Assembly: GCF_003334385.1 (NCBI RefSeq)
Contig: NZ_QOWN01000009.1
Length of the DNA stretch: 64,000 bases
Direction: 5' to 3' (one strand)
Source: Escherichia coli
Lineage (GTDB): Bacteria > Pseudomonadota > Gammaproteobacteria > Enterobacterales > Enterobacteriaceae
Below, one piece after another: positions 28,581-33,344 of the stretch. The notes beneath the pieces were generated by a model. It was given only the letters and a program-made list of their open reading frames with translations, was not told where the DNA came from and made no database searches. Every line of letters starts with the position of its first letter. The first letter of the stretch is position 1. The position numbers and the translations under genes are program-made.

Positions 28581-29339
28581 ATGAAACAAACACAACGTCA
28601 CAACGGTATTATCGAACTGGTTAAACAGCAGGGTTATGTCAGTACCGAAGAGCTGGTAGAGCATTTCTCCGTCAGCCCGCAGACTATTCGCCGCGACCTC
28701 AATGAGCTGGCGGAGCAAAACCTGATCCTGCGCCATCATGGCGGTGCGGCGCTGCCTTCCAGTTCGGTTAACACGCCGTGGCACGATCGCAAGGCCACCC
28801 AGACCGAAGAAAAAGAGCGCATCGCCCGCAAAGTGGCGGAGCAAATCCCCAATGGCTCGACGCTGTTTATCGATATCGGCACCACGCCGGAAGCGGTAGC
28901 GCACGCACTGCTCAATCACAGCAATTTGCGCATTGTCACCAACAATCTCAACGTTGCTAACACGTTGATGGTAAAAGAAGATTTTCGCATCATTCTCGCC
29001 GGTGGCGAATTACGCAGCCGCGATGGCGGGATCATTGGCGAAGCGACGCTCGATTTTATCTCCCAGTTCCGCCTTGATTTCGGCATTCTGGGGATAAGCG
29101 GCATCGATAGCGACGGCTCGCTGCTGGAGTTCGATTACCACGAAGTTCGCACCAAACGCGCCATTATTGAGAACTCGCGCCACGTTATGCTGGTTGTCGA
29201 TCACTCGAAATTTGGCCGTAACGCGATGGTCAATATGGGCAGCATCAGCATGGTAGATGCCGTCTACACCGACGCCCCGCCGCCAGTAAGCGTGATGCAG
29301 GTGCTGACGGACCACCATATTCAACTGGAGCTGTGCTGA
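28581..29339 (+). CDS. glpR: glycerol-3-phosphate regulon repressor GlpR (DeoR family), intact
   Basis: 252 aa with a DeoR-type N-terminal HTH (QRHNGIIELVKQQGYVSTEELVEHFSVSPQTIRRDL). Confidence 0.93.
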   Translation: MKQTQRHNGIIELVKQQGYVSTEELVEHFSVSPQTIRRDLNELAEQNLILRHHGGAALPSSSVNTPWHDRKATQTEEKERIARKVAEQIPNGSTLFIDIGTTPEAVAHALLNHSNLRIVTNNLNVANTLMVKEDFRIILAGGELRSRDGGIIGEATLDFISQFRLDFGILGISGIDSDGSLLEFDYHEVRTKRAIIENSRHVMLVVDHSKFGRNAMVNMGSISMVDAVYTDAPPPVSVMQVLTDHHIQLELC

Positions 29340-30909
29340 TCCTGCACGGCTTCCCACGTCAGACCAAAACGCGCCAGGTATTTGCGTAGCCGATCCGCGT
29401 CATTGACGCTGGCTTTGCCCTGGCGCGAAACGTCAAAAAGCTGGCGTCCGGCTGCGGAAAGCGACTTTGCCTGGCGGCAGATAGCGATAACGTGTTCCAG
29501 TTGCATACGGTCGAAGAGATCGATGTTTTCTGCCTCTGCGCCCAGCAACGCCGTAAGCGCGGAGGGGCGGCTCTCCTGCCAGTTATAGCGCAGACGGTTT
29601 ATCTCATCTTCAACCACGTCCAGAGTGATGCGTCCGCTAGTGGCAAAGGTGGCCATCCGCGTGACGCTGGCAGAAAGTTCGCGAAAGTTACCGCGCCATG
29701 TTGCCTGGGGAGAGGTCGCAAAAGCCAACCAGGCGCGCCGCGCTTCGGTGTTAAAACGCACGCTGTCGCCAGTGAGTGAGGCGTGGCGCTCCACTTCATA
29801 ATCCAGGTTCGGTTCAATATCTTCCTGGCGCTGGCGTAGACCCGGCAGGGTGAAGGTCCAGAGATTGATCCGCGCGTACAGATCTTCGCGAAATTTGCCT
29901 TCGGCAACCAGCTGGCGCAAATCGCGCACCTAAGCTGAAAATCACTGCTCACCTGGCGATCGCTGCCAAACGGGTAAAAGGTTTTCTCTTCAATGGCTTT
30001 CAGCAGCATTGCCTGTTCGTCTGCGCCCAGTTCGCCAATCTCATCAAGAAACAACATTCCGCCGTTGGCGCTGCGTAATAAACCTTCACGAGATTCCCGC
30101 GCCCCGGTAAACGCGCCTTTTACATGACCAAACAGCGTCGACATGGCGGTATCGCCGCGCAGGGTGGCGCAGTTCACTTCCACAAACGCGCCGCTAAACT
30201 GATGCCGCGCCTGTTTTAACTCGAAGATGCGTCGCGCCAGAAATGACTTGCCCGCGCCGGTTGGACCGTTAAGCAGAATCGGCGCGCGGGATTTGATCGC
30301 CACTTTTTCGATCTGCTCAATCATGCGGTTGAAGTGGGGGTTACGCGTGGCAATGCCGGACTTAAGAAAATCAAGCGTTTGCTGGCGTTCCTCGGCAAAG
30401 CGGCTGGCGATGGCGTTATAACGGCTTAAATCGAGATCGATAATCGTTACTTCACCTGGGCCGCGCGGCTGTTCTTTTTTGCGCGGAGGTGAAGATTGTA
30501 TCAGCCGGGCGGGCAGGTAACGCGCTTCTGCCAGCAGAAACCAGCAAATCTGCGCGACGTGGGTACCGGTGGTGATGTGAATTAAATAGTCTTCTTTTTC
30601 TGGCTGAAACTCGTAACCACGGGCGAAATCATGCAGGCAGGCGTAGACCTCTTCGAAATCCCACGGGTTATGCAGTTCAATCTCAACGCTCACCACTTCT
30701 GTTTCTGGCGAAACGCTGGCGATATCGCGTTTAAGCGTTTCAAATAGCGAGCGCGAGCGGGCGTCGTGCAACAATTCCAGTCGATCGATGACCAACGATT
30801 CTTGCTGGCATAAACAGAGTGTCGGACGCCATTTTGACCAGCGCTGACTGCCGCGCCCGGCATAATCCAGTACGGTACCGACAAAGCCAAAAGCCACTGT
30901 TTTACGCAT
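29321..30909 (-). pseudogene. rtcR: sigma-54-dependent activator RtcR, frame-disrupted at about 29929-29932
   Basis: N-terminal ORF 30909..29599 has the CARF-like N-domain and AAA+ Walker A (GPTGAGKS), GAFTGA and Walker B (LFLDEIGEL) motifs but leaves the frame after ...SSDFQL; the C-terminal part (VRDLRQLVAEGKFREDLYARIN... and the HTH) continues in another frame as ORF 29929..29321. Confidence 0.7.
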
Positions 30910-31043
30910 CTTAGATATCCTTATAAAAGACGATATTTCATTATCGGTAAATTGGCTTTGCGGGAAATCTCCGGTTACGGACGTAAAGATATAATCTTTT
31001 TTAAAACAATGAATTAAAAAATTAAGCTGCTTATTTAATTTTC

Positions 31044-31059
31044 TGGCACGACGGTTGCA
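31044..31059 (+). promoter_or_regulatory. sigma-54 (-24/-12) promoter of rtcBA
   Basis: TGGCACgacggTTGCA matches the TGGCAC-N5-TTGCA consensus exactly, about 40 bp upstream of the rtcB start. Confidence 0.8.
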
Positions 31060-31097
31060 ATTATCAGGACAGCAAACAACGAAAAGAGAAAAACAAA

Positions 31098-32324
31098 ATG
31101 AATTACGAATTACTGACCACTGAAAATGCCCCGGTAAAAATGTGGACCAAAGGCGTGCCGGTAGAGGCCGATGCGCGTCAGCAACTTATTAATACGGCGA
31201 AGATGCCGTTTATTTTCAAACATATTGCGGTAATGCCTGATGTACACCTGGGTAAAGGTTCCACCATTGGTAGCGTGATCCCGACCAAAGGGGCGATTAT
31301 TCCGGCGGCGGTGGGCGTGGATATTGGCTGTGGAATGAACGCGCTGCGTACCGCGTTAACGGCGGAAGACCTGCCTGAAAACCTGGCAGAGCTGCGTCAG
31401 GCGATTGAAACGGCCGTGCCGCACGGGCGTACCACTGGCCGTTGTAAACGTGATAAAGGTGCCTGGGAAAATCCACCTGTTAACGTCGATGCTAAATGGG
31501 CTGAGCTTGAAGCCGGTTATCAGTGGTTAACGCAAAAATATCCCCGTTTCCTGAATACCAATAACTATAAACACCTGGGAACGCTGGGAACCGGTAACCA
31601 CTTTATTGAAATCTGCCTTGATGAGTCGGACCAGGTGTGGATTATGCTGCACTCCGGTTCACGCGGAATTGGTAACGCCATCGGGACTTACTTTATCGAT
31701 CTGGCACAAAAAGAGATGCAGGAAACGCTTGAGACGTTGCCGTCGCGTGATCTGGCGTACTTTATGGAAGGTACGGAATACTTTGATGATTACCTGAAAG
31801 CCGTGGCCTGGGCGCAGCTTTTTGCCAGCCTTAACCGCGATGCGATGATGGAAAACGTGGTAACGGCATTGCAGAGCATTACGCAGAAAACGGTCAGACA
31901 GCCACAAACGCTGGCGATGGAAGAGATCAACTGTCACCACAACTATGTGCAAAAAGAACAGCACTTTGGTGAAGAGATCTACGTGACGCGTAAAGGCGCG
32001 GTGTCTGCGCGTGCTGGTCAATATGGAATTATTCCCGGTTCGATGGGAGCAAAAAGCTTTATCGTCCGTGGGCTGGGAAATGAAGAGTCGTTCTGTTCGT
32101 GCAGCCACGGTGCCGGGCGGGTAATGAGCCGAACTAAAGCGAAAAAACTGTTCAGCGTGGAAGATCAAATTCGTGCCACCGCGCATGTGGAATGCCGTAA
32201 AGATGCCGAAGTGATCGACGAAATCCCGATGGCGTATAAAGATATTGATGCGGTGATGGCGGCACAAAGCGATCTGGTGGAAGTTATCTATACCCTGCGT
32301 CAGGTGGTGTGCGTAAAAGGATAA
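31098..32324 (+). CDS. rtcB: RNA-splicing ligase RtcB
   Basis: 408 aa with conserved metal-binding motifs (HSGSRGIG ... CHHNY ... SHGAGR). Confidence 0.95.
   Translation: MNYELLTTENAPVKMWTKGVPVEADARQQLINTAKMPFIFKHIAVMPDVHLGKGSTIGSVIPTKGAIIPAAVGVDIGCGMNALRTALTAEDLPENLAELRQAIETAVPHGRTTGRCKRDKGAWENPPVNVDAKWAELEAGYQWLTQKYPRFLNTNNYKHLGTLGTGNHFIEICLDESDQVWIMLHSGSRGIGNAIGTYFIDLAQKEMQETLETLPSRDLAYFMEGTEYFDDYLKAVAWAQLFASLNRDAMMENVVTALQSITQKTVRQPQTLAMEEINCHHNYVQKEQHFGEEIYVTRKGAVSARAGQYGIIPGSMGAKSFIVRGLGNEESFCSCSHGAGRVMSRTKAKKLFSVEDQIRATAHVECRKDAEVIDEIPMAYKDIDAVMAAQSDLVEVIYTLRQVVCVKG

Positions 32325-33344
<1,020 letters not shown>

Follow-up and report, generated by a model that had tools for sequence, protein, structure and literature searches.

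In Escherichia coli K-12, the rtcR gene (b3422; NCBIfam equivalog NF038308) encodes a sigma-54-dependent enhancer-binding protein with a CARF domain. Transcription of the rtcBA operon needs RtcR, which exerts its effect via sigma-54 RNA polymerase (PMC5175333); the CARF domain of the regulator binds RtcA and RtcB (PMC9650030), and RtcR truncated at its N-terminus is constitutively active (PMC5175333). Growth inhibition by the tRNase VapC is stronger in cells without rtcR, survival of tetracycline is impaired without a functional Rtc system (both PMC5175333), and under tetracycline the RNA/protein ratios are lowest in ΔrtcR cells (PMC12606134). Here we describe the rtcR locus in a stretch of 64,000 nucleotides (nt) of E. 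coli DNA (assembly GCF_003334385.1, contig NZ_QOWN01000009.1), referred to below, at its full length, as the window. The locus has the same synteny as in K-12, glpR-rtcR followed by the divergent rtcB-rtcA-malT, and its rtcR copy has lost 10 nt within the AAA+ domain. We put at about 90% the probability that this is a genuine, evolutionarily recent rtcR loss-of-function allele in a minor E. coli lineage. The gene is a strain-specific pseudogene of an ordinary kind, its intact form being a well-known regulator; no new mechanism, system or element is involved.

A 10-bp deletion in the AAA+ domain of rtcR

The rtcR gene of strain 300709 (1599 nt, 532 amino acids (aa), WP_001232946.1; positions 3001-4599 of the retrieved stretch), in which the reading frame is continuous, served as the intact reference allele. 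Compared base by base, the window copy is identical to it over the initial 979 nt and the final 610 nt; since 979 + 610 = 1589, the whole length of the window copy, the absence of TCGCCGGAAC is the sole difference between the two, and nucleotide identity outside the deletion is 100%. The missing bases are nt 980-989 of the gene, codons I327-A328-G329-T330, and the junction on the minus strand reads CAG CTT A|G GTG CGC GAT (29931|29930). An alignment to strain MB06232 (NZ_CM129885.1), the nearest complete relative, gives the same placement of the deletion. As this placement is unique, the breakpoints are free of microhomology. The 10-nt indel is not a multiple of three, and the gene is a frameshift pseudogene by this measure.

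Two overlapping open reading frames (ORFs), in different frames, lie on the minus strand between 29321 and 30909. The first (29599..30909, 436 aa) opens with MRKTVAFGF, is RtcR-like as far as SSDFQL, and comprises 326 native residues followed by 110 out-of-frame residues. The second (202 aa) has a GTG start, reads (V)RDLRQLVAEGKFREDLYARIN and ends in the normal RtcR C-terminus. A sequence-only reading of the window had proposed a 10-nt deletion removing IAGT at this junction, and the alignment to intact alleles bears this out: the 10-nt gap is there, the junction is the same, and the sum of 326 + 4 (IAGT) + 202 residues equals the 532 aa of the reference. The 10-mer which that reading had guessed, tcgccggtac, is right at nine of its ten positions and wrong at one base (GGA, not GGT).

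The features of the locus are collected in Table 1. The 3' end of rtcR converges with that of the neighboring glpR.

Table 1. Positions, in the window, of the rtcR lesion, of the retained and displaced parts of RtcR, and of the adjacent genes
Feature	Positions	Strand	Remarks
rtcR pseudogene	29321..30909	-	1589 nt vs 1599 nt in intact alleles; alignment to WP_001232946.1
Deletion junction	29930..29931	-	TCGCCGGAAC missing between these two bases; unique placement
Native N-terminal 326 codons	29932..30909	-	Pfam domains and motif coordinates
Out-of-frame tail, 110 codons and stop	29599..29931	-	begins RCAICASWLPKANF; no match to RtcR
Displaced C-terminal frame, V331-S532	29321..29929	-	NF038308 profile positions 328-529
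RtcR/CARF domain	30355-30906	-	Pfam; intact in the window
Walker A GPTGAGKS, residues 215-222	30244-30267	-	motif search; upstream of the break
GAFTGA, residues 265-270	30100-30117	-	motif search; upstream of the break
Walker B LFLDEIGE, residues 286-293	30031-30054	-	motif search; upstream of the break
FREDLYAR, residues 343-350, arginine-finger segment	29870-29893	-	displaced frame only
GNFREL, residues 410-415, sensor II	29675-29692	-	displaced frame only
Sigma-54 (-24/-12) promoter of rtcBA, TGGCACGACGGTTGCA, TGGCAC-N5-TTGCA	31044..31059	+	intact; ~40 nt upstream of the rtcB start codon
rtcB, RNA ligase, 408 aa	31098..32324	+	intact; RtcR target
rtcA, RNA 3'-phosphate cyclase, 338 aa	32328..33344	+	intact
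glpR, 252 aa	28581-29339	+	intact; 19-nt overlap with rtcR at 29321-29339

Domains and motifs on either side of the break

In intact RtcR, Pfam identifies the RtcR/CARF domain (PF06956) at residues 2-185, Sigma54_activat at 187-354 and AAA_lid_14 at 362-443. PF06956 is also listed for the 436-aa product, in which the region of residues 2-185 is identical to the reference. The Walker A, GAFTGA and Walker B motifs, assigned to the N-terminal frame by the sequence-only reading, were all located there, in a single chain; together with the CARF domain, they are common to the window copy and intact RtcR.

The remaining motifs were mapped by alignment to the solved AAA+ structures of Aquifex NtrC1 (1NY6 and 4LY6). 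The RtcR stretch dfqLIAGTvRDL aligned to vriLAATNRNI of NtrC1, so that the deleted IAGT corresponds to the LAAT(N) of the sensor-I strand; FREDLYAR (343-350) aligned to FREDLYYR and GNFREL (410-415) to GNVREL. From general knowledge of NtrC-family AAA+ domains, we take these three RtcR segments to be sensor I, the arginine-finger segment and sensor II, respectively. Unlike intact RtcR, the window copy loses its frame after residue 326, with sensor I deleted; the frame shift also displaces the arginine fingers, sensor II, the lid and the DNA-binding domain. The chain with the P-loop therefore has neither the sensor-I strand nor the arginine fingers nor sensor II/lid; the C-terminal DNA-binding region, coded only by the separate 202-aa frame, is unlinked to the ATPase.

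The same division is seen with the NF038308 profile, for which the curated cut-off is 650 bits. The intact (or repaired) protein scores 852.4 bits, whereas neither of the two ORFs reaches the cut-off: the 436-aa ORF yields 535.9 bits over profile positions 1-324, its match stopping at residue 328, and the 202-aa ORF yields 282.1 bits over positions 328-529. The 110-residue tail of the longer ORF has no match to RtcR. These data support the earlier suggestion that the product would be a truncated ATPase devoid of a DNA-binding domain, the alignment placing both the lid and the C-terminal region out of frame.

Several truncated forms of RtcR have been engineered, among them RtcR 1-353, RtcR 1-186 and RtcR delta-NTD (PMC9650030, PMC5175333). 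Like RtcR 1-353, the window product combines the CARF domain with AAA+ sequence and has no DNA-binding part; it differs in that its native part is 27 residues shorter, stopping within the AAA+ core, with the 110-residue nonsense tail after it. Compared to the constitutively active RtcR delta-NTD (PMC5175333), it is the opposite form.

One scenario in which the gene would still be functional is a programmed frameshift, replacing IAGT by R, or a reassembly of the two ORFs as a split activator. Shifting by -1 after the rare AGG codon would indeed bring the frames together, but CTT AGG TGC is not a slippery heptamer, and the rejoined protein would still be devoid of the sensor-I strand of the AAA+ core. 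Similarly, the C-terminal frame starts with a GTG right after the junction, but an in-frame TAG lies directly 5' of this codon in the displaced frame, and no Shine-Dalgarno-like sequence is present in the 30 nt upstream of it (TCGCCAGGTGAGCAGTGATTTTCAGCTTAG). Termination-reinitiation coupling is unavailable, because the upstream ORF reads through 110 more codons. Residual function is favored by the ability of the CARF part to bind RtcA and RtcB on its own (PMC9650030); against it, a single continuous 532-aa protein is encoded in nearly all other E. coli genomes. Judging from these sequence features, rescue of the rtcR product appears unlikely, and we consider a gene that has remained functional to be barely credible.

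The deletion in the window and in other data sets

To judge the quality of the window, all 64 kb of it were compared with MB06232. The two are collinear and the window has no insertion sequence (IS) elements, which makes a Shigella origin unlikely; they differ by 23 substitutions and two 10-nt gaps. One of the gaps is the rtcR deletion, and there is no other window-specific indel over the 64 kb; the other, at window position 7074, reflects a tandem duplication (ATAATTGTTC) in MB06232 and is not a lesion of the window. The gene at this point, tssD/yhhZ (6145-7323, minus strand), has a single copy of the 10 nt and an intact 392-aa ORF in the window, and is annotated as frameshifted in MB06232. 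All 48 other genes mapped from MB06232 are intact in the window and rtcR alone is broken; between 27912 and 42909, the rtcR deletion is the sole difference between the two strains. A low-quality assembly was considered as an explanation and was rejected on these grounds. As a separate observation, MB06232 carries an IS1 within ggt that the window lacks (near 4460-4468 of the window).

Exactly the 436-aa frameshift product is found on five Logan contigs. Two of these, from SRR3823653 and SRR1815429, were read; both share the window's junction, and their alignments to the window, of 7311 and 6373 nt, respectively, contain no mismatch. In a megablast search of the region, rtcR was found in 5,425 of 5,426 complete RefSeq E. 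coli genomes, the best full-length matches displaying 99.4% identity over 1599 nt (1589/1599). The deletion allele was found in none of the 5,426, either by the whole-gene search or with a 101-nt junction probe, for which the best full-coverage match was 91.0%, equivalent to the 10-nt gap. Likewise, an exact 30-mer spanning the junction had 0 matches in GTDB representative genomes and 0 matches in JGI metagenome contigs.

The sequence-only reading had left room for a sequencing or assembly indel, i.e., for a strain which truly has an intact rtcR and a gap made during assembly or consensus calling. The absence of the junction from the complete RefSeq E. coli genomes, the GTDB representatives and the JGI metagenome contigs fits such an artefact, as does the lack of microhomology, which is unusual among spontaneous small deletions. 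However, Logan contigs assembled separately, from different SRA runs, have this junction too and encode precisely the 436-aa product; no other indel and no other broken gene are seen against a relative only 23 substitutions away; and the loss of 10 nt from non-repetitive, non-homopolymer sequence is atypical of platform errors. A one-off assembly error is very unlikely, because the window is otherwise clean and the junction recurs in contigs from separate SRA runs, and we regard an artefact of any kind as highly improbable.

The closest relatives carry an intact rtcR, and rtcB, rtcA and the intergenic region contain no further differences from MB06232; the deletion event is therefore recent.

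Some of the data weigh against a genuine and recent loss-of-function allele, or temper it. The junction is supported at the level of assembled contigs rather than of raw reads or coverage, and the five Logan contigs may share one isolate or clone, in which case the deletion is real there, which is not the same as widespread. No direct repeats flanking the deletion were found. The site has only a trivial CCGG/CGG mini-hairpin, and local DNA folding did not differ significantly from shuffled controls (z about -1.4). Neither microhomology nor folding thus accounts for the mutational origin of the deletion. Some basal rtcB expression persists without RtcR (PMC5175333), and the phenotype may accordingly be mild. 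Finally, we infer the loss of RtcR activity from conserved motifs, and the phenotype is a prediction.

The rtcBA operon and the predicted consequence of the lesion

The window rtcR lies divergent from rtcB-rtcA and their sigma-54 promoter, which is the genomic context of RtcR, and the promoter and both genes are intact in the window as they are beside intact RtcR. By its sequence, TGGCACGACGGTTGCA is a textbook -24/-12 sigma-54 promoter.

The single 10-bp deletion removes codons 327-330, the putative sensor-I beta-strand IAGT of the AAA+ core, and shifts the frame. If it is a genuine loss-of-function allele, its effect may be envisaged as follows. The resulting product would combine the CARF domain with the first two thirds of the ATPase core and 110 nonsense residues; missing from it would be sensor I and the trans-acting arginine fingers, as well as sensor II, the lid subdomain and the C-terminal DNA-binding domain. 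Such a truncated protein would be expected neither to form an ATP-hydrolysing ring nor to bind the upstream activating sequence. As the intact sigma-54 promoter of rtcBA strictly needs an activator, it would be uninducible; RtcB and RtcA would still be encoded, but probably held at a basal level. The predicted phenotype is similar to that of ΔrtcR: no Rtc induction upon tRNA or rRNA damage, a poorer recovery from ribotoxins and ribosome-targeting antibiotics, and a modestly higher sensitivity to translation damage.

Other losses of the Rtc system in E. coli

Inactivation of this system is not restricted to the window. About 586 of the 5,425 complete genomes (~11%) keep only rtcR nt 1216-1599, beside a 3' rtcA remnant; rtcB is gone from them entirely, as are the greater parts of rtcR and rtcA, and rtcR-rtcB-rtcA is naturally deleted in a large lineage. 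An example of an rtcR remnant fused to an rtcA remnant is found in NZ_CP069589.1 (positions 2598-3384 of the retrieved stretch, corresponding to window ~29321-33344).

Another allele has an in-frame rtcR deletion of 954 nt, yielding a 214-aa product (MRKTVAFGFVG|TVRDL; e.g., GCA_900450055.1, positions 1501-2145 of the retrieved stretch). Its junction, GTCGG|AACGG, has microhomology of 3 nt (CGG); the breakpoint on the right (rtcR nt 983-986) is located inside the 10 nt missing from the window. With 148 blocks of the indexed collection, and 24 contigs read, it is much more widespread than the window allele. Nonsense mutations were found at G329 (G329*, GGA to TGA; ENA assembly ERZ1742665) and Q325 (Q325*, CAG to TAG; Logan contig from SRR23175684), at positions 467-506 and 1971-2010 of the two retrieved stretches, and one-nucleotide frameshifts at about nt 980 and about nt 987. 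Several other rtcR frameshift alleles are present as well, and in strain HCP5S3_I4 (NZ_CM149869.1 359999-362374) an IS1A is inserted in an otherwise identical rtcR.

Other contigs with the exact 202-aa ORF were considered as further carriers of the window deletion. None of them is; they have G329*, Q325* or, in five ENA scaffolds, a 100-N gap instead. These five independent scaffolds, from gut or other metagenomes, have 55-nt duplicated ends around the gap, at rtcR nt 974-979 (retrieved positions 1884-1988). The scaffold breaks suggest that mixed E. coli populations contain co-occurring rtcR variants at this position.

All of these natural rtcR or rtc losses, the window allele included, would abolish the activator, and several of the lesions lie only a few nucleotides apart, at codons 325-330. 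The allele of the window differs from the others as a distinct 10-bp deletion without microhomology, which has left rtcBA and its promoter untouched. Within ~15 nt lie the window deletion, the right end of the 954-nt deletion, two one-nucleotide frameshifts and two nonsense mutations. This clustering near codons 325-330 is suggestive, and no hotspot is claimed; it is strongly biased, because the alleles were found via long alternative ORFs shared with the query. That codons 325-330 are lesion-prone or a selected target, and that the window allele belongs to a large set of convergent inactivations of the Rtc switch, is doubtful in our view.

An additional, slightly less doubtful though still unlikely, scenario is that the loss was selected, i.e., that rtcR inactivation is advantageous in some niches and that the Rtc system has been hit convergently many times, the window allele being one instance. 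The ~586 genomes with only the rtcR and rtcA remnants are consistent with this, and so are the independent null alleles (Q325*, G329*, the 954-nt in-frame deletion, several frameshifts and the IS1 insertion), as well as the placement of rtcR and rtcB among the variable 'extended-core' loci in a 2025 pan-genome study (PMC12595684). Against it, the alleles were ascertained through shared ORFs, the window allele is rare (5 contigs, none in complete genomes), and the Rtc system aids survival under translation stress (PMC5175333). If convergent inactivation were nevertheless the case, inducing Rtc would carry a cost in certain niches, e.g., upon exposure to toxins, phages or antibiotics.

Taken as a genuine and recent loss-of-function allele, the window rtcR is of value mainly for annotation and for the prediction of strain phenotype. 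The strain and the few sequenced carriers should be treated as natural rtcR nulls, in which rtcBA is intact but would be uninducible, and their tolerance to ribotoxins and ribosome-targeting antibiotics could drop slightly. The window allele adds one more case to the recurrent pattern of Rtc loss in E. coli.

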